Source: an uncultured Bacteroidales bacterium
GTDB taxonomy: Bacteria > Bacteroidota > Bacteroidia > Bacteroidales > UBA932
NCBI GenBank assembly: GCA_900545245.1
Contig: UQYV01000005.1
Span: 24,922 to 88,921, forward strand
DNA length: 64,000 bases
Reading direction: 5' to 3'
In this document: positions 47,537 to 64,000 of the stretch, piece by piece
Layout: the number at the start of each line of letters is the position of its first letter
Numbering within the stretch: position 1 is the first letter of the stretch
Notes under the pieces: generated by a model
Database searches by the model: none
The model's input: the letters and a program-made list of their open reading frames with translations, nothing else
What the model was told of the DNA's origin: nothing
Program-made: the position numbers and the translations under genes

Positions 47537-48544
47537 ATGGCAATCTTAGCATTTCAGAAACCGGACAAGGTGATTATGCTTGAAGGAACCGATACCGTCG
47601 GCCGCTTCGAGTTCAGGCCTTTGGAGCCTGGCTACGGACAGACCATCGGTAATGCCCTCCGCCGTATTCTCCTGTCATCATTAGAGGGGTTTGCTATCAA
47701 CTCAATCAAGATTTCCGGTGTAGACCAGGAATTCGCCACAATTCCGGGCGTCGTTGAGGGAATGCAGGACATCATCCTGAACCTCAAGCAGGTGCGCTTC
47801 AAGAGAATGGTGGACACCGTTGATTCGGAGGTGGCAAACATCGTTATCAGCGGAAAGCAAGAGTTTACCGCTGAGGAAATCTCAAAGGGATTGTCTTCTT
47901 TCACGGTGTTGAACCCTGACCTTCACATCTGCACTCTCGAACCGTCCGTGAAACTTGAGATCTCTCTCACGGTTGCAAAGGGACGCGGTTTTGTTCCGGC
48001 TGACGAGAATAGGGACGAGAATACGCCTATCGGAACCATTCCGGTGGACGCCATCTACACCCCTATCCGCAACGTGAACTGGACCGTCGAGAACTGGCGT
48101 GTGGAACAGAAGACCGACTACGAGAAGCTGAATCTGGAGATTGTAACCGACGGTTCAATCACTCCGAACACGGCTCTGCAGGAGGCTGCAAACATCCTTA
48201 TCTATCACTTCAAACTGTTCACCGACGACAAGAAGCTCACTCTTGAGAGCACCGTTGAGTCTGACTCAAAGGAACTTGACGAGGAGTCACTCCATATGAG
48301 ACATCTCCTTCTCACCAAGCTTTCCGATATGGGACTTTCAGTGAGAGCATACAACTGTCTGAAGGCTGCTGACATCGACACTTTCGCTGACCTTGTTTCC
48401 TACTCAAGGGCTGAGCTTATGAAGTTCAGGAACTTCGGAAGGAAATCCCTCAACGAAATCGACCAGTTGGTTGACAAGATGAAGCTTTCATTCGGTATGG
48501 ATGTTACCAAGTATAATATTGAACAAAAGAAAAAGAACGTATAA
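47537..48544 (+). CDS. rpoA: DNA-directed RNA polymerase subunit alpha
   Basis: 335 aa with N-terminal dimerisation and C-terminal alpha-CTD domains. Confidence 0.96.
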
Positions 48545-48547
48545 AGT

Positions 48548-49051
48548 ATGAGACACAATAAGGCTTTCAACCACCTTGGTCGCAAGAGCGGTCACCGCAA
48601 GGCTCTCCTCGCGAATATGGCCACTTCACTCATTCTTCACAAGAGAATCGAGACCACTGTAGCCAAGGCAAAGGCTTTGAAGATGTACGTTGAACCGCTC
48701 ATCACAAAGTCAAAGGACGATACTACTGCATCCCGCCGTACCGTTTTCAGCTATCTCAAGAACAAGGAGGCAGTCACGGAGCTCTTCCGCACCGTTGCCC
48801 CTAAGATTGCTGAGCGTCAGGGAGGATACACAAGGGTTCTCAAGACCGGTTTCCGTCAGGGTGACGGTGCTGACCTCGCAATCATCGAGCTCGTTGACTT
48901 CAACGAGGCAGCTCTCGCTTCAACTCCTAAGAAGGAAACCAAGAAGACAACTCGCCGCAGCCGCGCAAAGAAGGCAGAGACCGTAGAGGCCGCTCCTGCA
49001 ACCGAGGCTCCGGTTGAGACTCCGGCAGAGGCACCTGCAACTGAGGAATAG
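48548..49051 (+). CDS. rplQ: 50S ribosomal protein L17, with an Ala/Glu/Thr/Pro-rich C-terminal tail
   Basis: [28 protein letters not shown]... Confidence 0.96.
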
Positions 49052-49074
49052 TCCGAAACCGACTCTAAAACCCA

Positions 49075-49111
49075 AAAATCCCCCGAAACCGCAAGATCTC
49101 GGGGGATTTTT
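49075..49111. terminator. Strong bidirectional rho-independent terminator: a perfect 12-bp stem AAAATCCCCCGA/TCGGGGGATTTT with a T-run
   Basis: Seen in the sequence, between the converging rplQ and LacI genes. Confidence 0.65.
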
Positions 49112-49150
49112 GGCTCTGGGGCGTACGGAGGCTGAAATTACAGGAGTCTC

Positions 49151-50164
49151 CTATTCTTTGGGGCGACCGACCGATTCGCGGAGAATAATCTCTGTGGACA
49201 GTTCTATTTGTGAACTGAGAGTTTTTTGACTTCGTATGCTTCCGATTAGGAGCTTTACTGCCATTCGTCCCATTTCTTCAACCCTTTGACCGATGCGGGT
49301 GACGGCGGGAACGAAATAATCGAGGTAGATGTTGTTGTCAAAAGAGACTAGTGAAATGTCATCCGGTATCTTTAATCCGGCTTCCCTGATGGCGCGAATA
49401 GCTCCGAGTCCTATGGTGTTGCTGAGCGCAAAAATGGCTGTCGGTCTGTCGGGACTATTCAGGAGCAGTTTTGTTTCAATGTAGCCGTTCTGTACAGTAA
49501 AATCGTTGCCAACGATTTGCTTGTGTTCCTCCAGTCCGGCTTTTTTCAGTGCGGCAAAGTACCCTTCTGTCCTTTTCTTGTTCGGCATCGAATCCAGATT
49601 TCCTTGAATACAGGCGATTTTCTTGTGCCCGTTCCTAATGAGAATGTTTGTCCCATCTACGCCGCCCTGCCAATTATTTGTCACGACATAGGGAAGTGGC
49701 GAATTTTCGAAGTATCTGTCCACAAGGATAATGGGTGCAATCCGTTTATTGAGGTCTTCAAGGTAATAGGGGTCAGAGCCGCAGGGAACGATAATCATTC
49801 CTTCCACCTTTCGGGAAACCAAGGCACAAATGGAATCTTTTTGCGCGGATTCATTCTCCATCGTATCAGTGACTATTGTCGTGTACCCGTGTTTCTTCGC
49901 TTCTGCAACGATGACACTTGAGATTTCCGCAAAATAGGGATTAGACATATCCGGGACCACGAGCCCGATTGTTTCTGTTTTCCCGTTGCGCAGGTTTTGT
50001 GCTAAAATGTTTGGTGTATAACCGAGTTCCGCAGCAGTTTCCCGTATGGCTTCCGCGGCTGTCTCTGAAATTCTGAATTTCTCTGCTTTCCCGGTTAGAA
50101 CTCTTGATACAGTGGATGTTGAGTATCCAGTTTTTTCGGCAATTGTTTCCAGTGTCGGTTTCAT
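49151..50164 (-). CDS. LacI-family transcriptional regulator (ribose-locus repressor, RbsR/RusR-like)
   Basis: N-terminal HTH (TLETIAEKTGYSTSTVSRVLTG) and a periplasmic-binding-protein-like sugar-binding domain; divergent from the ribokinase gene. Confidence 0.85.
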   Translation of the reverse strand: MKPTLETIAEKTGYSTSTVSRVLTGKAEKFRISETAAEAIRETAAELGYTPNILAQNLRNGKTETIGLVVPDMSNPYFAEISSVIVAEAKKHGYTTIVTDTMENESAQKDSICALVSRKVEGMIIVPCGSDPYYLEDLNKRIAPIILVDRYFENSPLPYVVTNNWQGGVDGTNILIRNGHKKIACIQGNLDSMPNKKRTEGYFAALKKAGLEEHKQIVGNDFTVQNGYIETKLLLNSPDRPTAIFALSNTIGLGAIRAIREAGLKIPDDISLVSFDNNIYLDYFVPAVTRIGQRVEEMGRMAVKLLIGSIRSQKTLSSQIELSTEIILRESVGRPKE

Positions 50165-50300
50165 ACTTGTGGTTATTTTTGCTCGTGTTTATTGCAGCAA
50201 CATTTCGATTGCGCAACAAATTTGGCTTGTTTGTGCAAAAATATTCACTTTTTTCATCCCAAAATATGGTTTTGAGGAATAATTTCAGAAATATCGTGAA

Positions 50301-50327
50301 TATATTTGCGCAAACGATTGTGCAAAG
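50301..50327 (+). promoter_or_regulatory. Ribokinase promoter -7 box (TATATTTG) fused to an imperfect 20-bp palindrome TTGCGCAAACGATTGTGCAA; candidate LacI-family operator
   Basis: It has a central CG and 16 of 20 symmetric positions. A near-identical copy lies at 62391-62413. Further TTGYGCAA boxes at 50209-50216 and 50231-50238 overlap the reverse-strand LacI -7 box (CAAAAATA, 50236-50243). Confidence 0.45.
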
Positions 50328-50381
50328 TGTCTGCATTCTTTCCACAATCGAAATGAATAACCGCTAATATAACACTAATAT

Positions 50382-51284
50382 ATGGGAAAAATCGTTGTGA
50401 TCGGGAGTGCGAATACCGATTTGGTAATCAATACCTCGCGCATACCGGAACCTGGTGAAACAGTTCTTGGAGGCAAGTTTATGATGGCTGCCGGGGGAAA
50501 AGGCGCAAATCAGGCTGTGGCGGCGCAGAGACTCGGAGCGGACGTCACTTTTGTCGCTTGTGTGGGAGATGATCTTTTCGGCCGAAATTCACTTGAAAAC
50601 TATCGTAAAGAAGGGATGAATACCGCTTTCGTTTCCGTAAAGGAGGGTGTTCCATCCGGAGTCGCCTCAATATTTGTCGACGCTAAGGCGGAGAATGTGA
50701 TTGTGGTCGCTCCTGGAGCAAATTCCGAACTGCTCAAAGCGGAAATTGATGCGGCAACTGCAGAAATCGCTTCAGCGGATTTTGTGCTTATGCAGTTGGA
50801 AACTCCGATGGAAACTGTTGAGTTTGCTGCAACTAAGGCTGCAGAAGCCGGAACAAGAATAGTCCTCAACCCGGCTCCGGCTGCTCTCCTTTCAGATGCG
50901 TTGCTCTCAAAACTATGGCTGATTACTCCGAATCGCACTGAAGCCCAGCTTCTTACAGGGCTCCCGGTGACGAATGTGCAAGAGGCGGCAACAGCTGCCG
51001 AGGCTCTCGCAGCCAAGGGAGTGAAAAATGTGGTGATAACCCTCGGTTCAAAGGGTGCCTATGTGCTATCTCAAGACTTCCGTGGCATAGTCCCGGCAAC
51101 TCCTGTGAAAGCGGTGGATACGACAGCTGCGGGCGACACCTTCAATGGAGCCCTCTGTGTGGCTCTTTCCGAAGGACGCGGAATCAAGGACGCCTGCACA
51201 TTCGCCGCCAAGGCATCGGCCATATCCGTCACCCGCCCGGGTGCCCAGCCTTCGATACCATATAGAAAAGAAATAGTAGAATAA
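50382..51284 (+). CDS. rbsK: Ribokinase
   Basis: PfkB fold with the GG anion hole (MMAAGGKGANQA) and the C-terminal DTTAAGDTFNGAL motif. Confidence 0.85.
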   Translation: MGKIVVIGSANTDLVINTSRIPEPGETVLGGKFMMAAGGKGANQAVAAQRLGADVTFVACVGDDLFGRNSLENYRKEGMNTAFVSVKEGVPSGVASIFVDAKAENVIVVAPGANSELLKAEIDAATAEIASADFVLMQLETPMETVEFAATKAAEAGTRIVLNPAPAALLSDALLSKLWLITPNRTEAQLLTGLPVTNVQEAATAAEALAAKGVKNVVITLGSKGAYVLSQDFRGIVPATPVKAVDTTAAGDTFNGALCVALSEGRGIKDACTFAAKASAISVTRPGAQPSIPYRKEIVE

Positions 51285-51330
51285 ACAAACATATCGTTAC
51301 ATTGGGAAATTAGTAATCTTATAGTGTATA

Positions 51331-52893
51331 ATGAAGATGGGAAAATATAACATCATGACATTTCTTCTGATGGCAATGGTGTCCTGCTCCACTATGAATG
51401 GACAGAGCAATTCGGGCTCTGAAGCTCTCGAACCGTTAACTGTGAGCAGAATATGCACAACTTCGGGCGACGATAAGCCTTATCTTGAAGTTGGCGGTAA
51501 GCCATTTGCCGTTTATGGCGCACAGATTCGCTTAGACATATTCCGTTCGGTTGACAAACTTGACTGGCCTTCAATTGAAGAATACTTCGCGCTTGCGTCA
51601 AGGCTTGGCGTGAACTGCGTGCAAGTTCCGTGTCCTTGGGCTTTCATAGAGCCGAAAAGGGATTCATGGGATTTCGACGCTGTGGATAAAGTTCTCGGAT
51701 TTGCCAATAGTCACAATCTAAAGGTTGAACTCTTGTGGTTCAGTACCAATATGATAGGTGATTCCTATTCGTGGCTGGTTCCGACCTACATTTTGGCTAC
51801 GCCGTCAATTCGCCTTAGGCGGGATGATGACGGGAGTTGGCATGGGCTCTATGGCTATGCCTATTCCTTACAGATGAACAGCGACTTTGTCCTTGAACGT
51901 GAGAAAAATGCCGTGACGCGTCTTTTTACCCACATCCGCGAATGGGACGAGGCCAATGGAAACCATCACCCGGTCATTACTTGTCAGGTGCATAACGAGC
52001 CCGATGCTCTCGTGCGATGGCGCCTTGCCGAGAAAAAGATTTCTCACAAGGACGGCACGAGGTTGACACAGAAGGAAGCTTGGGATATGACTCTCAAGTC
52101 TCTGGACGTTATAGGACGGGCAGTGAAGAATAGCGCCTATTCCGTTGCGACCCGTACCAACATCATTTCTGGCAATGGCGTCAACGATTTTCCTCAGACT
52201 CCAGGCATATCACCGAAGGACGTCTATGCTCTTGAAGGGATAGATTTCGTGAGTTTCGACCCTTATATGTCTGAGGTCGATAAGATTGCATACGAGGTGA
52301 GTCAGTATGCGTCCATGTTGGGGAATTATCCGCTTGTCGCGGAGAATCGGGGCGATTATTCGAATACTGCAAGCCTCATGCTTGTTGCTTCTGCGCTTGG
52401 CGGAGGCTATGACATCTATGACCTCGCCACTAGCAAATACATAACATCTCACAGCGAGCCCCCGTTCAACTCAGAGGGAATATACAATTCAGACTTCACT
52501 CCGAAGCCTCATGTGCCTTTGGTGCAAACACTGCTTTCGGCTCTTGTCGCTGCGGGAGAGGATATCGCGCTGACCGCCACTGATGACTTTGCCGTGTTCA
52601 ATGTCAGGACTGATACCCCTCAGACGACTCTCTCTCAGACCATAAGCACGACAGGGGCAGAGCTGAAGTTCGAGACCTCTTCTGGAGCTCTTGCCTTTGT
52701 CCTTGATAGGGGAGACAGGCTCATCGCGTTCTCTACGGCAGATGCCGTGCTGAATGTTGGCGGCGGCAGTCTCACTAATAGGAACGACAATGCCATCGCC
52801 TTGAAAGGCGGGCAGTTGACTGAACTTGGTTTCAAGTCATCTGGAACAAGACAAAGTACTGTAAAACATAATATAGGGACAATATTTAAATAA
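51331..52893 (+). CDS. Putative TIM-barrel (clan GH-A-like) glycoside hydrolase lipoprotein; paralog of the 58075-59547 gene
   Basis: Lipoprotein signal (MAMVSCS) and an NEP-type candidate acid/base motif (QVHNEPD). It is clearly homologous to the 58075 product. Confidence 0.45.
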   Translation: MKMGKYNIMTFLLMAMVSCSTMNGQSNSGSEALEPLTVSRICTTSGDDKPYLEVGGKPFAVYGAQIRLDIFRSVDKLDWPSIEEYFALASRLGVNCVQVPCPWAFIEPKRDSWDFDAVDKVLGFANSHNLKVELLWFSTNMIGDSYSWLVPTYILATPSIRLRRDDDGSWHGLYGYAYSLQMNSDFVLEREKNAVTRLFTHIREWDEANGNHHPVITCQVHNEPDALVRWRLAEKKISHKDGTRLTQKEAWDMTLKSLDVIGRAVKNSAYSVATRTNIISGNGVNDFPQTPGISPKDVYALEGIDFVSFDPYMSEVDKIAYEVSQYASMLGNYPLVAENRGDYSNTASLMLVASALGGGYDIYDLATSKYITSHSEPPFNSEGIYNSDFTPKPHVPLVQTLLSALVAAGEDIALTATDDFAVFNVRTDTPQTTLSQTISTTGAELKFETSSGALAFVLDRGDRLIAFSTADAVLNVGGGSLTNRNDNAIALKGGQLTELGFKSSGTRQSTVKHNIGTIFK

Positions 52894-52901
52894 CCACTGT
52901 T

Positions 52902-55900
52902 ATGAGAAATCCATACAAGATTGCCGTTATCACGGCGGCCATGATGCTTTTTTGTCACAGTCTGTTTGCTCAAAATGCAGTCACCGGAACAGTGACTGAC
53001 ATAAATGGCGAGCCGATACCTGGCGTATCTGTGGCTGTTCTTTCCAACTCTACTCTGACAGGTACCGTGACTGACATGGATGGGAAATATTCCGTCAATG
53101 CTCCGGCTACTGGACAGCTCGCTTTTAGTTCGATAGGCTATGTCTCGCAGACCGTGAATATCATGAATAGGGCCGTCATCAACGTTACTCTCGCGGATGA
53201 CCTCAAGATTCTCGACGAGTCCGTTGTGGTCGGTTTCGCTACTCAGAAGAAAATCAACCTTACCGGTTCCGTTGCCACGGTCGATTCCAAACAACTTGAG
53301 GATGTGCCGGTGCGAAATGCCGTGCTTGCACTTCAGGGACAGGTGCCGGGACTCAACATCAAACAGGTGAGCGGACAGCTCTACAACAAGAATCCGAACA
53401 TCACCTTGCGAGGTCAGGGCACTATCGGTCAGGGTTCTTCCGGAAGTGTGCTCGTGCTCATCGATGGGATGGAAGGCGATTTATTCTCCATCAATTCTCA
53501 GGATATTGAGAACATATCTGTTCTCAAGGATGCTGCGGCTTCATCAATCTACGGCTCCCGCGCTCCGTTCGGAGTCATCCTCGTGACAACGAAAAAGGGC
53601 AAGGAAGGCAAGATGCAGGTGAACTATAACAACAATTTTCGATTCAATACTCCTCTTAAGCTGCCGCATTCCGCGGACTCGTATTCATGGGCGCTATATT
53701 TCAACGATGCCTCCAACAATGACGGCAACGCGGACGACATCGGAGCCGCGCGTCTTCAGCGAATCAAAGATTATCAGGATGGAGTCATCTCCTACAACAC
53801 TATTCCCGTCGGCAATCAGTGGGGCACGGCCTATACCGAAGGTAACGATAACATCGACTACTATGACGTGTTCTACAAAAAAGTTTCCTTCGCACAGGAG
53901 CATAATTTCAGCTTCTCCGGAGGCAATAGCAAAATCAATTATTTCGTATCGGGTAACTACCTCAAGGAAGACGGACTCTTCACTTTTGAGGGCGCTGATC
54001 TTGACGGCTTGTCAAGGGGAAATGTCTTCGGAAAGATTGAAGCTAGACCATTCGATTTCTTGACGATAGGCTTCAGCAGCCGCTTCATACGCGAGGACTA
54101 TCATGAACCTACCGTTCTTTCGGACGAAACCCTTTGGTATTTCGGCCAGTATCTCTGGCCGGTCGCTCCTCTTTATGACCCCAACGGAAACCTTTTCAAT
54201 GACCTTGCTCTCCGCTTCAGCCGTGGAGGTCAGAGAACCATATCCAACACTACTTCGGCAAATCAGTTCAACTTTGTTCTGACTCCAGTGAAGGGATGGC
54301 GGATAGTAGGTGACGTGAACTATAGGTACCGTTCCTATTTCAACAAGATAGTGGACAAGGAAGTATGGCAGACCTGCATCGATGGTGTCACAAAGGGCTC
54401 TTCATGGGACTATCACACAGGGGTTGCAAATGATGACGGCAGAAACCAGTATGTCAATATCAATGCCTACACCGACTATGAGAACAATATAGCTGGGAAT
54501 TATTTCAAACTCATGACCGGTGTGCAGATGGAGTCATATTCCGTAAATTCTACATATGCCAAGCGTGAAGGGCTCATCGTTCCGGACATTTCTTCGCTTG
54601 ACACGACGTCCGGACTCTTCAACGGTGAAAAGGTCAGTCCGATTGTTGGAGGCGGTTCTTCCGCTTGGAGGACTCTGGGTTTCTTCGGACGTCTGAACTA
54701 CAACTATAGGGAGCGCTATCTTCTGGAGGGAAATCTACGTTACGACGGATCGTCACGCTTCGCTGCTGACAAACGCTGGGGACTATTCCCATCAGTTTCG
54801 GCAGGATGGAATATTGCCAAGGAGCCGTTCTTCGAGCCCGCACAGCGCTGGGTCAACACCCTGAAGTTTAGGGCGTCGTATGGCTCCCTTGGAAACCAAA
54901 ACACAAGTTCGTTCTACCCGACATTCGCGCTTATGAACTTTGCAAATTCCCAGGGAAGTTGGCTCATTGACGGCAAGAAAACCAACATCGCCTGGCCGGC
55001 CTCACTCATAAGTTCTTCCCTCACGTGGGAAAAAGTGAAGTCGTGGAATGTCGGCCTTGATGTCACGGCCTTCGACGGCCGCCTCAATTCGTCGATAGAG
55101 GGCTATGTAAGAAGAACTGAGGATATGATAGGCCCGGCAGACGAACTTCCTGTAATACTCGGAACCGCAGTACCTTATACAAACAATACCGATCTCCGGA
55201 CTACAGGGTTCGAGTTTGAGATTTCTTGGAACGACAGAGCCTTCGACCAACTTGACTATGGAGTGCGCTTTGTCCTTTCCGACGCAGTCACGAGAATTAC
55301 GAGATATTCCAATCCTTCGCAAACTCTTTCTACCTACTATGAGGGAATGACTCTAGGAGAGTTCTGGGGGTATGAGTCCGTCGGCATCGCGCGCAGCGAA
55401 GACCAGATGCTCGAACATCTTATGACCCTTCCGAACGGAGGGCAGACCGCGCTTGGTTCCAACTGGCGTGCCGGCGATGTAATGTACAGAGACTTGAACG
55501 AGGACGGCAAGATTGACACCGGCTCATATACGCTTGATGATCACGGCGACCTTAAGATAATCGGCAACACCACGCCGCGCTACAATTACGCATTCGATAT
55601 AAACCTTGCATGGAAAGGTATCGACCTGCGTATGTTCCTTCAGGGCGTAGGCAAGCGAGACTATTTCCAGAAAGGAAAGTATTTCTTCGGCAGTTGCGGA
55701 TGGAGTAAATGGGGTACCATGGTTCTCCGCCAGCATCTCGACTATTTCCGTGATGATCCGGAAAGCCCTCTCGGACTCAATACGGACGGCTATTACCCAA
55801 GACCTTACCTCGATTCAGAGAAGAATGTCCAGTGGCAGAGCATGTATGTCCAGGACGCTTCCTACCTGAGACTGAAGAATCTTCAGATAGGATACACATT

Positions 55901-56084
55901 CCCGCAGACTCTGACAAAGAAAATAGGCATACAGAACCTGAGACTTTATTTCTCGGGAGAGAACCTCTTGACGTTCACTAAGATGACTAATCTCTTTGAT
56001 CCAGAGACCATCGGTGAGAACGAGACAGGAAATGTCTATCCTCTTTCTCGGACATACTCTTTCGGCTTAAGCGTCACTTTCTAA
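52902..56084 (+). CDS. SusC/RagA-family TonB-dependent receptor of the ribose/nucleoside locus
   Basis: 1060 aa with a signal peptide, carboxypeptidase-regulatory-like domain, plug (ESVVVGFATQKK) and barrel ending LSVTF. Confidence 0.9.
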   Translation: MRNPYKIAVITAAMMLFCHSLFAQNAVTGTVTDINGEPIPGVSVAVLSNSTLTGTVTDMDGKYSVNAPATGQLAFSSIGYVSQTVNIMNRAVINVTLADDLKILDESVVVGFATQKKINLTGSVATVDSKQLEDVPVRNAVLALQGQVPGLNIKQVSGQLYNKNPNITLRGQGTIGQGSSGSVLVLIDGMEGDLFSINSQDIENISVLKDAAASSIYGSRAPFGVILVTTKKGKEGKMQVNYNNNFRFNTPLKLPHSADSYSWALYFNDASNNDGNADDIGAARLQRIKDYQDGVISYNTIPVGNQWGTAYTEGNDNIDYYDVFYKKVSFAQEHNFSFSGGNSKINYFVSGNYLKEDGLFTFEGADLDGLSRGNVFGKIEARPFDFLTIGFSSRFIREDYHEPTVLSDETLWYFGQYLWPVAPLYDPNGNLFNDLALRFSRGGQRTISNTTSANQFNFVLTPVKGWRIVGDVNYRYRSYFNKIVDKEVWQTCIDGVTKGSSWDYHTGVANDDGRNQYVNINAYTDYENNIAGNYFKLMTGVQMESYSVNSTYAKREGLIVPDISSLDTTSGLFNGEKVSPIVGGGSSAWRTLGFFGRLNYNYRERYLLEGNLRYDGSSRFAADKRWGLFPSVSAGWNIAKEPFFEPAQRWVNTLKFRASYGSLGNQNTSSFYPTFALMNFANSQGSWLIDGKKTNIAWPASLISSSLTWEKVKSWNVGLDVTAFDGRLNSSIEGYVRRTEDMIGPADELPVILGTAVPYTNNTDLRTTGFEFEISWNDRAFDQLDYGVRFVLSDAVTRITRYSNPSQTLSTYYEGMTLGEFWGYESVGIARSEDQMLEHLMTLPNGGQTALGSNWRAGDVMYRDLNEDGKIDTGSYTLDDHGDLKIIGNTTPRYNYAFDINLAWKGIDLRMFLQGVGKRDYFQKGKYFFGSCGWSKWGTMVLRQHLDYFRDDPESPLGLNTDGYYPRPYLDSEKNVQWQSMYVQDASYLRLKNLQIGYTFPQTLTKKIGIQNLRLYFSGENLLTFTKMTNLFDPETIGENETGNVYPLSRTYSFGLSVTF

Positions 56085-56096
56085 ATAATAACGAAT

Positions 56097-58067
56097 ATGA
56101 AAAGAATAATAAGATATTCCGGCGTTTTGGCGGCCATTTCCCTTGTGACTGTCTCATGCAATGCTTTCCTTGACCTGCAGCCGGAGTCAAATCTCTCTCC
56201 AACTCAGTACCTTACCACGGAGGATAATCTTGCGGCATACGCCACGGACCTCTACAATATGTTTCCGGTCCATGGTCAGACAAGCTGGGGAACATGGAAG
56301 AACGACAGCGATACGGATAATATGGCGTATGCCAACCCGAGCGATGCCTTTGCCCCTGGTTATTGGAAAGTCGGGCAGACCGGCGGCAGTTATGAATTTA
56401 CGGGAATCTACCGCTGCAACTACTTTTTTGACAATGTCCTTGAAAATTTTGAGGCAGGGAAGATAACAGGAACGGCGGCGAATATACGCCACTACATCGG
56501 GGAAGTCTATTTTTTCCGGGCATGGCAATATTATCTCAAACTTCAGTCTCTCGGGGACTTTCCGATAGTCACTCGTCTTCTCGAAGATGATCTTCAGGCT
56601 CTTACGGCAGAGAGCATCCGCCAACCGAGGAATGAAGTCGCTAGGTTCATCCTTTCCGACCTTGACAAGTCCATTGAGTATATGGCCGATGTAGCTCCTC
56701 GCGGCGGTAGCAATAGGCTGTCCAAGGACTGCGCCCACCTGATGAAGTCACGTGTGGCCCTATATGAGGGAACCTGGCTGAAGTATTTCAAGGGCACGGC
56801 ATTCGTGCCTGGAGGCGACGGCTGGCCCGGTCAGGCAAGTCATCCGGACTACCAATACCCTTCCGGCAACATAGATTCCGAAATCGCTGCTTTCCTCAAG
56901 ATTGCAATGACCGAGGCAAAGATTGTGGCCGACCGGCATCCGCTCACCTCAAGCACTGGACATTTCCAGTCATCGGCTGAGGCGGTCGCGAATCCATATT
57001 TCGACATGTTCGGTGACACGGATATGTCAAAATATGGCGAAGTACTGCTCTGGAAGGCATATAGCGTCGCGGAGGGTGTGACCAACTCCGTCATTGAGTT
57101 CGCGTCGGCCGCCAATCAGGGTTATGGCATAACAAAGAGTATGGTCGATGCCTTTGTCATGGCGAATGGTCTTCCGATTTATGCGGCTGGGAGCGGCTAC
57201 GCGGGAGATGCGGACCTTCTTAAAGTTACTGAAGATCGTGACTCTCGTGCGCAGATATTTATAAAGAGGCCGGGCGACACGAATCTTCACAGTGAGCCAG
57301 GTCCGGAGTCCTATCAGATGGAGCCTTGGCCGAACATTGTCAACTCCACGGCGTCGATGCGCTACACCACCGGATATGCTCTTCGTAAGGGCCTTAACTT
57401 CGATGGTTCCCAATCTGTCCGGGACAAGAGTTATGTCGGTTCCATTGTATTCAGGTCTGCGGAAGCATATCTGAACTACATTGAGGCCTGCTACGAAGCG
57501 ACGGGTGCACTTGATGCCGATGCCGAGAGGTACTGGACTGCAATCCGTGACCGCTCGAAAGTCGGCAACTGGCAGACTACGATAGACAATACGGACATGG
57601 AAAAAGAGAAGGAGACGGACTGGGGCGCATATTCCGCTGGGAAACTTGTGGATGCCACCCTCTTCAACATCCGCCGCGAAAGGCGCTGCGAACTGATGGC
57701 AGAGGGCTTCCGCGCAGCCGATGTCCGACGCTGGAGGTCTATGGATCAGATGATCGACACACCTTATCATGTGCTTGGCGTCAATGTGTGGGAAAGCCTC
57801 AGCTCCAATCCGGACTTCCTTGTTGCCAATGGCAACAACCTCAAGGAAGGCGAGAACATTTCGCCGAAAGATTTTAGCAAGTACTGCGCTCCGTACCACA
57901 TCCTCTCGAACAACCGTGCCTATGAGGGCTACAGATGGAGGATGGCTCACTATCTCGACCCTATCGCGGTGCAACATTTTCTGATAACTGGCGGAGGTTC
58001 TGCAGACAATTCGACACTTTACCAAAATCCAGGGTGGCCGCTTCAGGCCGGACAAGGTGCAGAATAG
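56097..58067 (+). CDS. SusD/RagB-family lipoprotein
   Basis: 656 aa with lipoprotein signal (VSCNAF) and SusD-like TPR region (YFFRAWQYYLKLQSLGDFPIV). Confidence 0.85.
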   Translation: MKRIIRYSGVLAAISLVTVSCNAFLDLQPESNLSPTQYLTTEDNLAAYATDLYNMFPVHGQTSWGTWKNDSDTDNMAYANPSDAFAPGYWKVGQTGGSYEFTGIYRCNYFFDNVLENFEAGKITGTAANIRHYIGEVYFFRAWQYYLKLQSLGDFPIVTRLLEDDLQALTAESIRQPRNEVARFILSDLDKSIEYMADVAPRGGSNRLSKDCAHLMKSRVALYEGTWLKYFKGTAFVPGGDGWPGQASHPDYQYPSGNIDSEIAAFLKIAMTEAKIVADRHPLTSSTGHFQSSAEAVANPYFDMFGDTDMSKYGEVLLWKAYSVAEGVTNSVIEFASAANQGYGITKSMVDAFVMANGLPIYAAGSGYAGDADLLKVTEDRDSRAQIFIKRPGDTNLHSEPGPESYQMEPWPNIVNSTASMRYTTGYALRKGLNFDGSQSVRDKSYVGSIVFRSAEAYLNYIEACYEATGALDADAERYWTAIRDRSKVGNWQTTIDNTDMEKEKETDWGAYSAGKLVDATLFNIRRERRCELMAEGFRAADVRRWRSMDQMIDTPYHVLGVNVWESLSSNPDFLVANGNNLKEGENISPKDFSKYCAPYHILSNNRAYEGYRWRMAHYLDPIAVQHFLITGGGSADNSTLYQNPGWPLQAGQGAE

Positions 58068-58074
58068 ACTGAAA

Positions 58075-59547
58075 ATGAGAAAGATTGCACTTCTTACGGC
58101 ATCGTTTGCCATTTTGTTATCCTGTTCGGGGACAGCAAACCCCGGCGGGAATACACCTCCGGTTGTGGTCTCGCGGGAGTTTCGCCTGACCGTTGACGGA
58201 AAACCATTCCTTATGCTCGGGGCCCAACTCCGCACTGACTATTTTCTTCAGCTTGACGGGCGCGATGTCGATAATCTTGACGACTATTTTTCGCTTGCTG
58301 CTGGTCTGAACATCACCTGCGTACAGGTTCCTGTGGCTTGGAGTGATGTCGAGACCGGATTTGACGAATATTCCGACAAGATTGTCAATGCCTACATTGA
58401 CTATTGCGAGAAATATGGGATGAAGTTGGAAATTCTATGGTTCGGAAGTTATATGTGTGGCTATTCGGTCGAGGGGTATATCCCAGCCTATGTCATAGCC
58501 GACACGGTGACATATCCAGAATTGAATCCGTCCGCGGCATATCAGGGATGGCTCGGAAAACAGTTCTATCTCAAGCCGGGAAATACGAAACTTGTTGCAC
58601 GGGAGGTTAAGGCCATGTCGAAGATGATGGAATTCATCGATGAGCACGACCGTAGTAATGGGTGTCCTCACACGGTAATCGGCATTCAGATTGAGAACGA
58701 GCCTGATATGTTGGCGACAAGACACAATGCAGCGCACGGTTATTCTGCGACCGACCTTTGGCCGAGCCTTATGTACCATTTGAACGAACTCGGCAAGGCT
58801 GTCAAGTCTTCCTCTTACAACTGCTACACCCGTGTGAACCAGACCGTCACTTACGACGACTGGATTTCTTGGAGCAGGAGAATCGTTGAACGAGAAGGCA
58901 TTGACTATGTGGGATTCGACCCGTATGTGAATGATGTCGGGACTCTCGCTGACTGGCTGTCGCAGATTCAGGGCATTCCGGGCAACTTTTCGCACATCGC
59001 GGAAAACGGCGGAGAGTTCATGAACAATGACCTTCTGACGCTTAAGGCTCTGACGATGGGCTGCGGATACGAGGTTTTTGAGGTTATCACCACTCCTCAT
59101 CGATACCTTGTGGATTGGACGCTGCGCGGGGTCTATAATCCGGACTTTACTCCTAAACCGCAGACGCAAAGGCTTATAGATGCCTACGGAATATTTCGTG
59201 CGGCGTGGTATGACTTTGCCGTAGCATCTCCGGAGAAAATGAAAGGATTTAACCTTGGGTCTTCTGATGGGAAGAATACTGCTTCGGAGTCATTTGTCAC
59301 GTCCTTCGGAAAAATCGGATGGGAAACCACCTCACGTGGAGTAGCTTTCGCGATAGAAGGCTCCGGATACATCACTGTTGGATCAACTAAGGCTGATGTC
59401 CTTTCTTTCGATTTCGCGGCTGCGTCAATAGGAATAGGTCATTATGATGCCGCAGGAAAATGGATTAAAACTTCTGATGTCGTGCCTCCGGCAGATGGAA
59501 GACTGTCTTTGTTTCCATGTAAAGTTTACAGAATAACGTTAAAATAA
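58075..59547 (+). CDS. Putative TIM-barrel (clan GH-A-like) glycoside hydrolase lipoprotein; paralog of the 51331 gene
   Basis: Lipoprotein signal (ILLSCSG) and an IQIENEPD motif. It aligns with the 51331 product (GAQLR.D.F...CVQVP..W...E...D...DK......K.E.LWFGS). Confidence 0.45.
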   Translation: MRKIALLTASFAILLSCSGTANPGGNTPPVVVSREFRLTVDGKPFLMLGAQLRTDYFLQLDGRDVDNLDDYFSLAAGLNITCVQVPVAWSDVETGFDEYSDKIVNAYIDYCEKYGMKLEILWFGSYMCGYSVEGYIPAYVIADTVTYPELNPSAAYQGWLGKQFYLKPGNTKLVAREVKAMSKMMEFIDEHDRSNGCPHTVIGIQIENEPDMLATRHNAAHGYSATDLWPSLMYHLNELGKAVKSSSYNCYTRVNQTVTYDDWISWSRRIVEREGIDYVGFDPYVNDVGTLADWLSQIQGIPGNFSHIAENGGEFMNNDLLTLKALTMGCGYEVFEVITTPHRYLVDWTLRGVYNPDFTPKPQTQRLIDAYGIFRAAWYDFAVASPEKMKGFNLGSSDGKNTASESFVTSFGKIGWETTSRGVAFAIEGSGYITVGSTKADVLSFDFAAASIGIGHYDAAGKWIKTSDVVPPADGRLSLFPCKVYRITLK

Positions 59548-59558
59548 GAGATAATAAT

Positions 59559-60785
59559 ATGAAGAAAATTTGGTTTTTATTGACTGCCATAGCAGCGTTG
59601 ATTACCGCCTGCAACAAGACGGAAATACCTTCAATCTTGACGGATATCGAGGAACTTTCTGTTACATCGGATGGCGGTATCTTTGACGTGAAAGTAACGT
59701 CAAATGTTCCTACAAGGACAGAGATTACATACGAGGATGGCTCTGATTGGATTTTCCTTATGCCGAAGGTTCTTAAAGGAGATGGTACTCTCAATTTCAC
59801 AATAAGCAAGTTTCTCGACTATGACGCTGTCCGCAAGGCGACGGCGACGATTACCGGCGACGGCGTGGCTAAAGTCATCACGATCGTTCAGACTGGGCGT
59901 CCTAAGCCAGAGGTGACGGAACTGGATCTTGATTCATACAATGTGTATTCGGATGTTGAGGGGGGCTCTTATGAGATTTCCGTCTCGACTGCCGGAGATT
60001 GGATGGCAAGCGTTGGTGGGGAGGCTGCCTGGTGTACTCTAGAGAATGGTTCTGGTTCGGGAGTGGGAAAGTTTGTGATAAAGGTAGCTGAATCCACGGA
60101 CTACCAATACCGCACTGCGGAGGTAAATGTCATCTCCGGACAACTTAAAAGGATGGTCCTTGTCCAACATGTCGGGACAAAAATAGGCAGTCTTGTATGG
60201 GCAAACGCGAATGTTGATGAACCAGATACATTCGGAAAGAACTGTCAGGTGCGCGGAAAACTCTATCAGTGGAATTCCAAGGTTGGATTTCCTACATATT
60301 CTGCGAACGACCATGGCGAACCTGAAAGACCGATACCTGGATACGTCGGTGGGGCGAAGGATGCTCATTCCGAGACTTGGACGGAAGAAAATGATCCTTG
60401 TCCTGAAGGGTGGAGAGTCCCGACAATTGATGAACTCTGCACTCTTATCGGGCACGAAAAGAGCGAAAAAATGTTCTGGTTTGACTATTGGATGACTAAC
60501 GGTATGTCTGTTGCCGGTGTCTATGCAGGACTTGATAGGGAAGTTATGAAGGCCGAGTCTGGGCTAGGACATATGAAAGGTGCAATCTTCATCCCTCAGG
60601 CAGGTCTTATAGACAGGGATAGTTGCCTTCAGATAGACTGGTGGGATGTTGCCTTGTGGAGCTGTACTAATGTGGGGCAGACCTGGGATATGCGTGCCGT
60701 GTGGATGAATGGTGATCAAAATTATAGTGTTACTGATTGGAGAGGCAGTATGTGTGCTCTATCCGTCCGCTGTGTCCTAAAATAG
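59559..60785 (+). CDS. Surface lipoprotein with two BACON-like domains and a C-terminal Fibrobacter-succinogenes-major-paralogous (Fib_succ_major) domain
   Basis: Lipoprotein signal (LITACN). BACON-like segments end in VITIVQTG and RMVLVQHVG. Fib_succ_major motifs are present (GKLYQWNS, DPCPEGWRVPTIDEL). Confidence 0.55.
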   Translation: MKKIWFLLTAIAALITACNKTEIPSILTDIEELSVTSDGGIFDVKVTSNVPTRTEITYEDGSDWIFLMPKVLKGDGTLNFTISKFLDYDAVRKATATITGDGVAKVITIVQTGRPKPEVTELDLDSYNVYSDVEGGSYEISVSTAGDWMASVGGEAAWCTLENGSGSGVGKFVIKVAESTDYQYRTAEVNVISGQLKRMVLVQHVGTKIGSLVWANANVDEPDTFGKNCQVRGKLYQWNSKVGFPTYSANDHGEPERPIPGYVGGAKDAHSETWTEENDPCPEGWRVPTIDELCTLIGHEKSEKMFWFDYWMTNGMSVAGVYAGLDREVMKAESGLGHMKGAIFIPQAGLIDRDSCLQIDWWDVALWSCTNVGQTWDMRAVWMNGDQNYSVTDWRGSMCALSVRCVLK

Positions 60786-60808
60786 TTCTTTGATTTTTTA
60801 ACTTGCGT

Positions 60809-60840
60809 CCGCTTCCAATATGTACAGCAATTGGAAGCGG
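60809..60840 (+). other. Perfect 11-bp stem-loop CCGCTTCCAAT-N10-ATTGGAAGCGG between the lipoprotein and nucleoside hydrolase genes; candidate attenuator or RNA-processing site
   Basis: Seen in the sequence; no clear U-tract follows. Confidence 0.3.
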
Positions 60841-60863
60841 ATGAATAATAATCTCTTTATGTG

Positions 60864-61895
60864 ATGAAAAAGATTTGTATTACAAAGGAGTGGGAATTTT
60901 TTTTGATTTCTGTATTCCTATTGATGTTGGCATCTTGTACGCAGGTTTCAAAACCGCAGCCTGTTATCTTCGATACGGATATGGGAAATGATATCGATGA
61001 CGCGCTTGCGCTCGCGATGCTCCACCGCTATGCCGATGAGGGGGAGATTCAGCTTCTCGGAGTTATGATTAACAAGAATGATCCTGCTTCGGCGGAATAT
61101 ATAGATATGGTGGACAGCTATTATGGATATGGCTCCGTTCCGATTGCGGTCGCGGAAAGACCGGCGGACTCAAGTGCGGACGGACGCAATGCCGCAGGGC
61201 AGAATTTCGTGGAGGCAGTGGTGTCGAAGTGTGATTTTTCTCGTAGTGTGAAGGATTATTCGGCGCTGCCTTCCGCAGTGAAACTCTACCGGCAGTTGCT
61301 TGCGGGACAGCCTGACCGTTCTGTTACAATCATCTCCACCGGATTCTCGACAAATCTTGCGGCTCTGCTCGACTCTCCTGCGGATGACATATCCCCGCTG
61401 ACCGGGCACGAACTTCTATCGAGAAAAGTGAAACTTGTGTCCGTGATGGCGGGTAATTTTCGGGAAGAGGGGCAGGACAGATTTCCTGAATACAATGTTG
61501 TGAGAGACATTCCGTCCGCACGGAAATTTTTTGCCGAATGTCCTGTTCCCATCGCTGTGTCCCCATTCGAACTTGGTTGGGAAATTTGCTATCCGGCATC
61601 CTCAATTGAGTCCAATCTCGGCTATGATACGCTGAATCCGGTCGTTGAGGCTTACAAGGACTATCTTCCTATGCCGTACAACCGTCCGACCTGGGACCTG
61701 ACCGCGGTTCTCTATGCCGTGGAAAAACCTCAAGAGTTCAGCACAGGTTCTTTGGGTACAGTTTCCATTGATGATTGCGGAATGTCAACATTCACTGCGT
61801 CTGAAAGTGGTCTGCATCGGATTTTGTCTGTAGATCCATCTGCCCGTCAATCCATTCTCGATCGTTTGGTTGAGCTTACGACAAAGGCAAATTGA
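60864..61895 (+). CDS. Secreted or lipoprotein inosine-uridine-preferring nucleoside hydrolase (IUNH family)
   Basis: Signal peptide with Cys (LMLASCT), then the IUNH Ca-binding signature DTDMGNDIDDALAL. Confidence 0.8.
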   Translation: MKKICITKEWEFFLISVFLLMLASCTQVSKPQPVIFDTDMGNDIDDALALAMLHRYADEGEIQLLGVMINKNDPASAEYIDMVDSYYGYGSVPIAVAERPADSSADGRNAAGQNFVEAVVSKCDFSRSVKDYSALPSAVKLYRQLLAGQPDRSVTIISTGFSTNLAALLDSPADDISPLTGHELLSRKVKLVSVMAGNFREEGQDRFPEYNVVRDIPSARKFFAECPVPIAVSPFELGWEICYPASSIESNLGYDTLNPVVEAYKDYLPMPYNRPTWDLTAVLYAVEKPQEFSTGSLGTVSIDDCGMSTFTASESGLHRILSVDPSARQSILDRLVELTTKAN

Positions 61896-61900
61896 CGATA

Positions 61901-62326
61901 TTATTGGATGACACTCAACTTCTTCAGTTTTTCCAAATCGAGATTTGTGCATTTGGCGACAATGTCGGCAGGAACACCAGCTTGAAGGAATTTTTGTGCG
62001 GTCTGGAGTACGGCTTCTTCTCGCCCTTCCCGTCGGGCGGCTTTAATCATACCTTTGGTTCTGAAATCTTCCAACATAATCCTTGTATATAATTGTTTCT
62101 GCTCTTTGTTGAAGTTGGCGACTTTCGCGGCTTTGAACAGTCTCAACATCATCCTGTCCTTCACCCAATCAGGCACTTCGGGCATTTGCCCCATGTTCTT
62201 GAACATATAGCACCAACGGTCAAGGTCGGTTTTGCACTGCTTGGGTGTCTTGTCGAAATGAGCCAACGCTGCAAATATAATACAAATCTTTCTTGTTTTT
62301 GCGCAAGTAATAGTGGACTTGCGCAA
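61901..62326 (-). pseudogene. Remnant (C-terminal half) of a PD-(D/E)XK nuclease family transposase / Rpn-like gene
   Basis: 141 aa containing DRWCYMFKN and a C-terminal TAQKFLQAGVPADIVAKCTNLDLEKLKKL, as I recall for the C-terminal half of the roughly 300-aa Bacteroides proteins of this family. The N-terminal nuclease half is missing. Confidence 0.35.
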
Positions 62327-62390
62327 AATAATTTTGATGAGAAGTTGAATTTAATCCCTTTTGCGGGTTGTTTTTAACGAGAATTGTTGA

Positions 62391-62413
62391 TAATTTTGCG
62401 CAAACGATTGTGC
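62391..62413 (+). promoter_or_regulatory. Transporter promoter -7 box (TAATTTTG) fused to TTGCGCAAACGATTGTGC; second copy of the candidate LacI operator
   Basis: The 19-mer TTTGCGCAAACGATTGTGC is identical to the one at 50305-50323; it lies 60 bp upstream of the transporter ATG. Confidence 0.45.
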
Positions 62414-62472
62414 CGGATGTCGGCACATTTTGTTCAAGACCGATATATTATTAACACATCAAATCTGATACT

Positions 62473-63486
62473 ATGTTTATTGCAAACAGTCAATTTTTGG
62501 CGGTCATCCTTTGTTTCATCACGATGCTCTGTTGGGGCTCGTGGGGAAACACACAGAAAATGGCCGCGAAGAGCTGGAGATATGAGCTCTTCTATTGGGA
62601 TTACGTGATAGGAATGGTTCTGTTTTCCCTGATTCTTGCATTCACGCTCGGCTCGTTCGGTTCGGAAGGACGTCATTTCATCGATGACCTCGCTCAGGCC
62701 GACATCAACAGCATCGCGTGGGTTCTTCTCGGTGCGGTTGTTTTCAATGTCTCCAACATCCTTCTTTCGGCATCGACTTCCAAGGCCGGAATGTCGGTAG
62801 CTTTCCCTCTTGGAGTGGGACTCGCTTTGGTTATAGGAGTTGTCAACAACCTTATTTTCCATCCGAAACCTTCGACAAACATTCCGCTCCTGCTTGTCGG
62901 TGTCGCTCTCGTTGTTGTTGCAATCGTCTGCAACGGAGTCGCTTCGGGCAAGGTCGACAAATCTGAAAGAGACCCACGGGAAAACCGTATGGGACTGATT
63001 TATGCGGTTCTTGCCGGCGTGATAATGTCCTTCTTCTCGGCTTTGGTCTATAACGGAATCGATATCAACAACATACACAACCCGGCTGAGGGAATGCTTA
63101 CTCCATATACCGGAACGGTGATTTTCGCCTTAGGAGTCCTCGTCAGCAACTTCCTCTTCAATTGTGTGTTCACGCTTAATGACTCCTCAAAGCCCGGTGT
63201 GAGATTCGCGGACTATTTCAAAGGTGATGCGAAGACCCATCTCGTCGGCATGCTCGGTGGTGCAATCTGGTGTCTCGGTACCGGTCTCAATTATGTGTCG
63301 GCAGGCACAGCCGGAGCTGCGGTCAGCTATGCCCTCGGTCAGGGTGCTCCACTTATTGCCGCCATTTGGGGCGTGTTCATTTGGAAGGAGTTCAAGGGTG
63401 CGAAAAAGAGTGTGAACTGGCTTCTTGCCCTTATGTTCGTCCTCTTCATCGCAGGTCTTGGCCTGATTATAGCTTCGGGTAACTAG
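62473..63486 (+). CDS. GRP-family (GlcU/RbsU-like, DMT superfamily) sugar transporter; putative ribose uptake permease
   Basis: 337 aa with about 10 TM helices and an N-terminal ...MLCWGSWGN motif similar to GlcU/RbsU. Its promoter carries the same operator-like sequence as rbsK. Confidence 0.55.
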   Translation: MFIANSQFLAVILCFITMLCWGSWGNTQKMAAKSWRYELFYWDYVIGMVLFSLILAFTLGSFGSEGRHFIDDLAQADINSIAWVLLGAVVFNVSNILLSASTSKAGMSVAFPLGVGLALVIGVVNNLIFHPKPSTNIPLLLVGVALVVVAIVCNGVASGKVDKSERDPRENRMGLIYAVLAGVIMSFFSALVYNGIDINNIHNPAEGMLTPYTGTVIFALGVLVSNFLFNCVFTLNDSSKPGVRFADYFKGDAKTHLVGMLGGAIWCLGTGLNYVSAGTAGAAVSYALGQGAPLIAAIWGVFIWKEFKGAKKSVNWLLALMFVLFIAGLGLIIASGN

Positions 63487-63674
63487 GCGACCTTCAAAAA
63501 ATAATCTGCATCGTCTTTCTCATCAGTCGTGTACATCCAGTACACTCCTTCTTTTACCAAGATAAGCGTCTGATTGTCAAGATTATATGTATAGTGTCGG
63601 TTAGAGACATCATTTTTTACAGAAAATGTCGTTTCTAACCGACATTTTGTGTATATTTGCAAAAACAATGAATT

Positions 63675-64000
63675 ATGGACTCTCTTTTTTTGAAACATGA
63701 CCGCTATTATGCCGAAACATCGACGGAAATTATTAGGGAATGCATCAATGATATAGATTGGGATGCTCGTCTAATTTCAATTCAAGGACCAAAAGGTGTT
63801 GGAAAGTCAACCCTAATCAGACAGTTTATCAGGCTTAATTATCCTCAGCATTCAAGAAAGGTTTTGTATTGTTCTATGGATTCCCTGTATTTCAGTAGCC
63901 ATAGCATTAGCGAACTTGTAGAACGCTTTGTCGCTATTGGAGGAGAGCGGCTGTTTTTGGATGAGATTCATAAATATGCTGGTCCATGGGGCACGGAACT
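63675..64000 (+). CDS. AAA-family ATPase (AAA_14/DUF4143-type), 5' partial that runs off the window
   Basis: MDSLFLKHDRYYAETS...ISIQGPKGVGKSTLIRQF (Walker A) ...LFLDEIHKY (Walker B). It is preceded by a -7 box TATATTTG at 63652-63659. Confidence 0.5.
   Translation, partial: MDSLFLKHDRYYAETSTEIIRECINDIDWDARLISIQGPKGVGKSTLIRQFIRLNYPQHSRKVLYCSMDSLYFSSHSISELVERFVAIGGERLFLDEIHKYAGPWGTE

Follow-up and report, generated by a model that had tools for sequence, protein, structure and literature searches.

The ribose-utilisation system (rus) of Bacteroides thetaiotaomicron comprised the genes BT2802-09, namely rusR, rusK1, rusK2, rusC, rusD, rusGH, rusNH and rusT (Glowacki et al., bioRxiv 10.1101/574913). 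In that study, rus homologues were called at BLAST E < 1e-50 and 70 configurations were distinguished, in which only RusR was a more prevalent regulator type than LacI; glycoside hydrolases (GHs) without an assigned family (GH*) and BACON proteins were among the variable parts (Fig. 6 legend), and all eight rus systems assayed showed a 100-1000-fold induction by ribose (bioRxiv 10.1101/574913). Here we analysed 64,000 nucleotides from an uncultured gut Bacteroidales bacterium (GenBank assembly GCA_900545245.1, contig UQYV01000005.1, positions 24,922 to 88,921, forward strand), and this whole stretch is called the window below. Its cluster of ten open reading frames (ORFs) at 49151-63486 was very probably a LacI-repressed polysaccharide utilisation locus (PUL) of the rus family. 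The family was already described, widespread and modular, and the present locus added a LacI-controlled, enzyme-minimal configuration to it.

The comparison with B. thetaiotaomicron was made through the Type-1 locus of B. faecis MAJ27 (L035; related loci are given L numbers), whose proteins were 98-99% identical to those of B. thetaiotaomicron according to Table S5 of the same study. To find relatives, a single genome of each species was scanned with an alignment built for the family of GH1, the first of two RusGH-like lipoproteins of the window (GH1 and GH2); Bacteroides loci of exactly Type-1 architecture, including that of B. faecis MAJ27, were among the results. The product of the window gene rbsK (50382-51284, + strand, 300 aa) was 53% identical to the RusK1 orthologue of B. 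faecis (E 4.9e-110) and also matched RusK2 (E 5e-75). The SusC/RusC-like TonB-dependent transporter (52902-56084, +, 1060 aa; TIGR04056, 858 bits) and the SusD/RusD-like lipoprotein (56097-58067, +, 656 aa; Pfam SusD_RagB and SusD-like_3) were 53% and 55% identical to the RusC and RusD orthologues, both with E 0. GH1 (51331-52893, +, 520 aa) and GH2 (58075-59547, +, 490 aa) shared 42% (E 7e-158) and 29% (E 1e-65) identity with the RusGH orthologue. The nucleoside hydrolase (NH; 60864-61895, +) was 40% identical to the RusNH orthologue (E 2e-68), and the permease at 62473-63486 (+, 337 aa) was 57% identical to RusT over its full length (E 1.4e-129). Every non-regulatory gene of the locus thus lay below the E < 1e-50 limit against the B. 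faecis Type-1 locus, and seven of the eight Bt-type Rus components, rusC and rusD included, had homologues in one 14-kb cluster. This homology (E 1e-65 to 0) bore out the first-pass annotation, which had been made from the sequence alone and had read the region as a rus-like ribose/nucleoside PUL; all ten of its ORFs were present at the same coordinates, and the Pfam and NCBIfam scans agreed with its gene content.

The regulator set the locus apart from Type 1. No RusR homologue was found at the window locus, and the RusR orthologue of B. faecis had no similarity to the window LacI in a pairwise comparison. Since LacI was an accepted regulator type in rus loci, the absence of RusR was a variable and not an excluding feature. 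RusR had previously been taken for a LacI-type protein, which was wrong: in B. thetaiotaomicron it was a 513-aa apparent activator, and its B. faecis orthologue had no Pfam domain and was not LacI. Furthermore, the B. thetaiotaomicron locus had two ribokinases where the window had one, a single RusGH instead of two paralogues, and no counterpart of the window's BACON-FISUMP protein. Its rusT directly followed rusNH, whereas in the window an Rpn remnant lay between NH and rusT, and rusT had an operator of its own. Common to both were a ribokinase, RusC/RusD, a RusGH lipoprotein (DUF4969/DUF4978), the IUNH-type RusNH and a GRP/GlcU-type RusT, at 40-57% identity. The LacI-regulated Type 8 loci (B. 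xylanisolvens XB1A and B. ovatus ATCC 8483) likewise had LacI by a ribokinase, SusC/SusD and RusT, but carried ADP-ribosylglycohydrolases where the window had RusGH and RusNH homologues. The ribose PUL of XB1A was listed in the primer table among the loci assayed for expression (bioRxiv 10.1101/574913).

The domain assignments of the individual proteins agreed with these roles. The rbsK product passed the ribokinase equivalog cut-offs of NF008353 (375.9 bits, cut-off 341) and TIGR02152 (373.7 bits, cut-off 299.65) and was therefore not the different PfkB kinase that had been named as a possible refutation; we take the NxxE (NRTE) and GAGD-type (AAGD) sequences in its translation to be ribokinase motifs. 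NH matched Pfam IU_nuc_hydro (PF01156) with 64.3 bits (cut-off 34.2), and the NCBIfam equivalogs for RihA and RihC were not reached. Compared with the canonical DXDXXXDD, two residues were inserted in its N-terminal Asp motif, DTDMGNDIDD, and the RusNH orthologue (DTDVGNDIDD) had the same form. Nucleotide alignments by blastn ended at 61724 within NH, and a chimeric C-terminus was considered but rejected because the proteins aligned collinearly to the end. The RusT-type permease (GRP/GlcU, RhaT/GlcU-type) matched Sugar_transport, Ureide_permease and TMEM144, with 32 bits for PF06800 (cut-off 26.3) and 75 bits for PF07168 (cut-off 27), and scored 42.7 bits against TIGR00776, under the cut-off of 319.6. 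RusT had the same three Pfam matches, so that the GRP-type transporter, at first counted as a difference from rus, was in fact a shared feature. RusT homologues were named 'glucose uptake permease' in Table S5 (bioRxiv 10.1101/574913).

The lipoprotein of 408 aa at 59559-60785 (+) had two stretches matching Pfam BACON, followed by a FISUMP-like region; its Fib_succ_major match was sub-threshold (29.3 bits, cut-off 33.9), and the domain was matched in 20 of 21 orthologues. The C-terminal domain had a conserved PxPxGWRxP motif, and no PDB relative was found by sequence search. We considered this protein a candidate surface glycan-binding protein. A lipobox cysteine was readable in the sequences of GH1 (MVSC), GH2 (LLSC), SusD (TVSC), the BACON protein (ITAC) and NH (LASC). 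The ORFs of GH2 and NH opened at 58057 and 60861; the likelier GH2 start was the ATG at 58075, and gene callers placed the NH start at 60864.

Related loci and the spread of the architecture

An identical locus was found on 10 contigs, and those listed represented three or more independent metagenome samples. The order GH1-SusC-SusD-GH2 was present in 14 species-level genomes, in 13 of which the BACON gene came next. Since the same locus occurred in several samples and the order recurred in 14 genomes, it was no chance juxtaposition. The taxon labels of these genomes were mostly Bacteroidales, Bacteroidia, Muribaculaceae and Cryptobacteroides, and four had other labels or none. Accordingly, the combination of two GH paralogues and a BACON protein was common and not unusual, as the first-pass annotation had held it to be, and these parts were also found in the Type 10 locus of B. 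cellulosilyticus.

The closest species-representative genome was an uncultured Bacteroidales metagenome-assembled genome (MAG) with a GH1 90% identical to that of the window. The locus L004 of the uncultured Bacteroidales MAG CAKUPC01 shared the whole architecture and the same operator, had proteins 79-97% identical to those of the window, and was likewise located downstream of an rpoA-rplQ block. It differed from the window in that rusT lay between rbsK and GH1, NH had its own operator copy and there was no Rpn remnant. Types 10 and 11 were assigned to B. cellulosilyticus DSM 14838 and B. intestinalis in Table S5 (bioRxiv 10.1101/574913). The Type 10 locus (L027) had a GH2-type protein 56% identical, a GH1-type protein 44% identical and a BACON-FISUMP-like protein 35% identical to those of the window, and also held SusC/SusD, NH, a ribokinase and RusT. 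However, its regulator was a RusR homologue, its genes were in the order RbsK-RusT-GH2-BACON-SusC-SusD-GH1, and it had in addition a family GH2 beta-galactosidase and, downstream, GH76 and GH125 enzymes.

Among the RusGH-family loci represented by 15 kb of sequence or more, an NH, ribokinase or RusT homologue was present in 28 of 33 from Bacteroidota and 8 of 9 of the Firmicutes type. The Firmicutes loci (L049-L061) had three RusGH-like (DUF4978) genes and an IUNH-like hydrolase, often with a ribokinase, and the one annotated in full came from a Christensenella MAG (L051, 3521-19943). Its order was a PKD surface protein, three RusGH-like genes, an AraC regulator, NH, a CUT1 solute-binding protein with two permeases, a ribokinase and a family GH2 beta-galactosidase. 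Thus, loci with RusGH, NH and RbsK in Firmicutes indicated that the module crossed phyla.

Further glycosidases were observed near RusGH and NH in several relatives, namely LacZ-type family GH2 enzymes in L027 (11571-14705) and L051 (17379-19943) and a GH20 hexosaminidase in the MAG UBA6408 (L017, 11574-14066). Unlike these three, the window locus had no LacZ-type family GH2 or GH20 gene. The recurrence of such glycosidases hints at mixed-sugar substrates containing ribose. Some rus contigs with SusC/SusD were labelled Lachnospiraceae, Treponemataceae or Oscillibacter (L006, L008, L020, L068), and these were probably binning or labelling errors.

In the window, the left neighbour of the locus was a ribosomal gene block (rpsM-rpsK-rpsD-rpoA-rplQ). 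A terminator-like hairpin at 63623-63648 (+; dG -15 kcal/mol, z -4.8) closed the locus on the right, and after it an unrelated AAA_14 ATPase ORF (63675-64000) ran past the window end. Elsewhere the window had a second PUL at 19840-37312 (a TIG-domain protein, SusC, SusD, GH97, a rhamnosidase-like protein and GH127), uvrC at 9305-11173 (-) and, at its left end, a third SusC-like gene with a DUF6377 regulator (177-5027, -).

Regulator, operators and transcription units

The regulator gene (49151-50164, - strand, 337 aa) encoded the Pfam LacI helix-turn-helix and Peripla_BP_1/3 domains and was divergent from rbsK. LacI homologues with 44-80% identity were found upstream of rus genes in 14 related loci, mostly directly divergent from rbsK. 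The best NCBIfam matches of the window protein were RbsR, CytR and PurR, all under the equivalog cut-offs. The conserved linkage to rbsK, together with a CG-centred palindrome that was also conserved, supported a role in a ribose regulon, but not orthology to RbsR.

This palindrome was found at two sites. The predicted operator O1, the 20-bp imperfect palindrome TTGCGCAAACGATTGTGCAA centred on CG (50306-50325, +), was fused to the promoter-like -7 box TATATTTG (50301-50308), and its end was 56 nt from the rbsK ATG. The second, O2 (TTGCGCAAACGATTGTGCCG, 62396-62415, +), was fused to the box TAATTTTG (62391-62398) and ended 57 nt before the rusT ATG. CG-centred palindromes are the usual form of LacI-family operators, and TAnnTTTG is the -7 promoter consensus of Bacteroides. 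At both sites the TAnnTTTG box overlapped the left edge of the predicted operator, and the two sites shared an identical 19-nt stretch. The core of the palindrome, TTTGCGCAAACGATTGTGC, had these two copies in the window and none elsewhere in it.

The palindrome was kept in the lacI-rbsK spacers of at least seven relatives (L004, L009, L010, L015, L016, L019 and L044), and in L004, L009 and L044 both box and palindrome were conserved while the flanks diverged. Other rus genes were preceded by it in L008, L018, L028 and L029, and so was NH in L004 and L017, where the window had a hairpin instead. With a threshold of 8 bits, a position weight matrix (PWM) built from these sites matched the 64-kb window only twice, at O1 and O2, with 31.3 and 26.9 bits. 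One mononucleotide shuffle scored 22.6 bits on this matrix, so the PWM score alone was no proof of an operator, and the 14-nt core with two mismatches allowed was not enriched in the window (3 matches, 1.9 expected). The case for the predicted operator therefore rests on three findings together, namely the 19-nt repeat without mismatch, the matrix scan and the conservation across genomes.

The octamer TTGCGCAA, which formed the left operator half, had three extra copies (50209-50216, 62299-62306 and 62319-62326), all within the two regulatory regions. Its five copies in the window compared with about one expected, and the extra ones were possible auxiliary sites. Two of these octamers lay in the hairpin at 62297-62328, which was considered as a further operator and rejected since its half-sites were 8 nt further apart than those of the operator. 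An Rfam scan of 48000-64000 gave no RNA family at the gathering thresholds, which argues against riboswitch-type control of the locus. The sigma-70 promoter scan, ill-suited to Bacteroidota promoters, was at or near chance (24 matches, 17.2±4.2 expected), and so was the scan for intrinsic terminators (15, 14.6±3.5 expected). Only individual hairpins, each checked by folding, were therefore used.

From rbsK to NH the genes occupied 11,514 bp, all on the + strand, with gaps of 46, 8, 12, 7, 11 and 75-78 bp. The first-pass annotation had proposed a single operon for this stretch. The small gaps and common direction made this plausible for rbsK to the BACON gene. The inclusion of NH was likely but less certain, as the BACON-NH spacer contained a strong RNA hairpin (60806-60843, +; dG -24.2 kcal/mol, z -7.1) that was unique within the window and was not followed by a U-tract. 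Candidate roles for this hairpin were an attenuator, a processing site or a stabiliser. In contrast, rusT was outside the rbsK operon, since it had its own promoter-like box and operator copy and since the rusT promoter was separated from the Rpn remnant by a terminator-like hairpin (TTTTGCGCAAGT...ACTTGCGCAAAA with a T-rich tail; 62297-62328, +; 12-bp stem, dG -19.1 kcal/mol, z -4.7). A repressor that occluded both promoters would give two co-regulated units, rbsK-GH1-susC-susD-GH2-BACON-(NH) and rusT.

Several observations spoke against this picture of regulation. The window LacI reached only 227.5 bits (cut-off 382) and 188.8 bits (cut-off 531) against the RbsR equivalogs. The promoter boxes were consensus matches, and the spacer from them to the nearest upstream TTTG was 26-27 nt, which was longer than usual. 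Additionally, the hairpin at 60806-60843 may limit read-through, in which case NH was perhaps not fully co-expressed with the genes before it.

Relocation of rusT and the Rpn remnant

In 17 related loci, including L004, rusT directly followed rbsK. The window was collinear with L004 except for rusT, since window positions 62449-63486 corresponded to L004 8943-9981, located between rbsK and GH1. A 10-nt scar at 51304-51313 (+; GGGAAATTAG), between rbsK and GH1 of the window, was aligned to the final codons and stop codon of rusT in L004 and preceded the conserved leader of GH1. Judged from these alignments, rusT was lost from its ancestral site after rbsK and was now at the 3' end of the locus. 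A 15-nt sequence, TCGAAATGAATAACC, was common to the rbsK leader of the window (50345-50362) and the rbsK-rusT spacer of L004 (8917-8936); it may be left over from the rearrangement or may be a leader element that the two share.

The degraded Rpn-like gene noticed in the first-pass annotation was real and marked this lineage-specific relocation. Its 141-aa ORF (61901-62326, -) matched, at 68% identity, residues 264-391 of a 393-aa PDDEXK_2 protein that was intact and adjoined NH in L017, and the homology ended at about 62287, right at the hairpin 62297-62328. Only positions 142-214 of the 229 of the PD-(D/E)XK profile were matched, and no full-length domain was found. By this comparison, 61901-62287 was the remnant of a transposase-like gene of the Rpn/PDDEXK_2 type, of which the C-terminal third was left, and the relocated rusT, with its own promoter-operator copy, sat at the junction that truncated this gene.

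The truncation of the Rpn gene, the scar and the move of rusT would also be expected if the Rpn-associated rearrangement had uncoupled rusT and left a decaying, non-functional cluster. We considered this extremely unlikely, because all nine functional ORFs were full length, the relocated rusT had a promoter-like box and operator copy of its own, and the arrangement was identical on the 10 contigs, three of them listed from separate samples. Moreover, the relocated rusT was 97% identical to its L004 orthologue at the protein level and 86% at the nucleotide level, and this difference pointed to purifying selection. A recent horizontal transfer of rusT, suggested by protein identities of 95-97% to L004, L017 and L044, was rejected on the nucleotide identities of 84-86%.

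The similarity to L017 (381-1410 and 14228-16661, corresponding to window 60954-63484) was mosaic. The rusT, NH and Rpn genes had 80-86% nucleotide identity, and SusC, SusD and GH1 had about 65-68% nucleotide and 52-63% protein identity. Such a pattern suggests that modules may have been exchanged between rus loci.

RusGH-like enzymes and their substrate

Both RusGH-like proteins matched DUF4978 (132 bits for GH1 and 68 bits for GH2, Pfam cut-off 29.3) and were 30% identical to each other (E 3e-70). The RusGH orthologue of B. faecis consisted of DUF4969 and DUF4978 and, like GH1, had weak matches to GH35 and GH42, which in GH1 were in the N-terminal part. In Pfam, GH1 scored 21.7 bits against Glyco_hydro_35 (cut-off 27) and GH2 had no match; in NCBIfam, GH35_fam gave 67 and 89 bits (cut-off 500). 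Since the GH35 profile hidden Markov models (HMMs) remained below their thresholds, GH1 and GH2 were assigned to the RusGH/DUF4978 family and not to GH35.

The AlphaFold model of GH1, built with 56 homologues, had a predicted local distance difference test (pLDDT) score of 94 and a predicted template-modelling (pTM) score of 0.90. It consisted of a (beta/alpha)8 barrel and a C-terminal beta-sandwich, as in GH35. In the model, a barrel strand ended in N222-E223, which aligned with the NEP motif of the GH35-like structure 8FA4, and a later strand ended in E338. These residues were invariant in all 56 family sequences, GH2 included. Such an arrangement of acid/base and nucleophile is that of clan GH-A. 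Thus, by the model and the alignment, GH1 and GH2 had a GH35-like fold and intact catalytic residues. The lipobox cysteine (Cys19 in GH1) was also invariant in the alignment.

When the GH1 model was compared with the PDB by Foldseek, two-domain bacterial GH35 beta-galactosidases came first (E 1e-24 to 1e-19, template-modelling score about 0.6, 15-19% identity). GanA of Xanthomonas (8FA4) and Bgl35A of Cellvibrio (4D1I) shared both domains with GH1, the TIM barrel and the beta-sandwich, and had the NEP acid/base motif in the same place, but the identity was low, the HMM scores were under the cut-offs, and RusGH, the one family member assayed, was weakly active on para-nitrophenyl (pNP)-ribose and inactive on other pNP substrates. 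That the nearest structural relatives were beta-galactosidases nevertheless counted against a ribose-specific role. Together with the weak GH35/GH42 sequence matches and the LacZ-type beta-galactosidases in the related loci of B. cellulosilyticus and the Christensenella MAG, it would fit a PUL for galactose-containing or other non-ribose glycans, in which GH1 and GH2 were GH35-like beta-galactosidases and the ribokinase, NH and RusT a fused accessory module. This explanation was very unlikely in our view, since the B. thetaiotaomicron RusGH (42% identical to GH1) was active on pNP-ribose only, the GH35 models stayed below their cut-offs, the locus had no galactose-catabolic genes, and the RusGH family was accompanied by NH, a ribokinase or RusT in 36 of the 42 long loci from two phyla.

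The substrate of the window locus was as uncertain as that of the B. thetaiotaomicron system. There, RusGH acted weakly on pNP-ribose, in dependence on divalent cations, and was inactive on all other pNP substrates and on a panel of glycans, and the natural substrate of the weakly active Rus enzymes was not found (bioRxiv 10.1101/574913). Our search of the literature on DUF4978, RusGH/BT2807 and ribofuranosidase gave nothing beyond this paper. The weak activities of RusGH and RusNH could mean that the locus scavenged only free ribose and nucleosides, with the RusGH-like and BACON proteins being non-catalytic or dispensable passengers. The hydrolytic functions of B. thetaiotaomicron were indeed dispensable in vivo, where the kinases alone were needed for fitness; growth on ribose in vitro also needed RusR, and loss of RusT slowed it. 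Even so, we regarded passengers as unlikely. The catalytic N-E and E were invariant in the 56 family members, including the paralogue with 30% identity, and both paralogue lineages were kept from Bacteroidales to Cytophagales and Sphingobacteriales. GH2 orthologues with 51-57% identity were found in B. cellulosilyticus, Leadbetterella, Sphingobacterium and Prolixibacteraceae, and this distribution implied that the GH1/GH2 duplication was old. Furthermore, in the Firmicutes loci three GHs of this kind were accompanied by an ABC importer for oligosaccharides of the CUT1 type, and enzymes beside an oligosaccharide importer argue for a real oligomeric substrate. The gene order in Christensenella would thus support a substrate that was both oligomeric and linked to ribose.

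In Bacteroidota PULs as well as in Firmicutes loci with ABC importers, the GH1/GH2 family was linked to an IUNH-like hydrolase and a ribokinase, and this linkage pointed to a ribose-containing substrate. As a tentative proposal, which is possible but falls short of probable, GH1 and GH2 may belong to an uncharacterised GH35-like family of clan GH-A, of beta-ribofuranosidase type, acting on a ribose-containing glycan or glycoside as their true substrate.

A putative course of events for the whole locus can be outlined from these data. Without inducer, the LacI repressor would sit on the 20-bp palindrome overlapping the TAnnTTTG box before rbsK and before rusT, so that both units, rbsK-GH1-susC-susD-GH2-BACON-(NH) and rusT, would be shut off together; ribose or a metabolite derived from it would free the repressor. 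The ribose-bearing substrate might be captured at the cell surface by SusD and the BACON-BACON-FISUMP lipoprotein and then trimmed by the two RusGH-like lipoproteins, as GH35-like retaining enzymes of clan GH-A with intact acid/base and nucleophile. SusC would import the products, the lipoprotein nucleoside hydrolase would remove N-linked ribose, and RusT would carry free ribose across the inner membrane. Finally, the ribokinase would produce ribose-5-phosphate for the pentose-phosphate pathway.

The current understanding of rus was not overturned by this locus, which was a fairly ordinary addition to the family. What it contributed was a prediction of operator and promoter for LacI-type rus loci, a documented case of module shuffling within a rus locus, where rusT came to lie beside an Rpn-type remnant, and comparative evidence that the RusGH family travelled with ribose-salvage genes across phyla, which sharpened the question of the substrate. 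If the proposed activity of GH1 and GH2 is true, then this locus, with only these two enzymes, a binding protein, NH and a predicted operator, would be a clean start for finding the substrate that eluded the B. thetaiotaomicron study.

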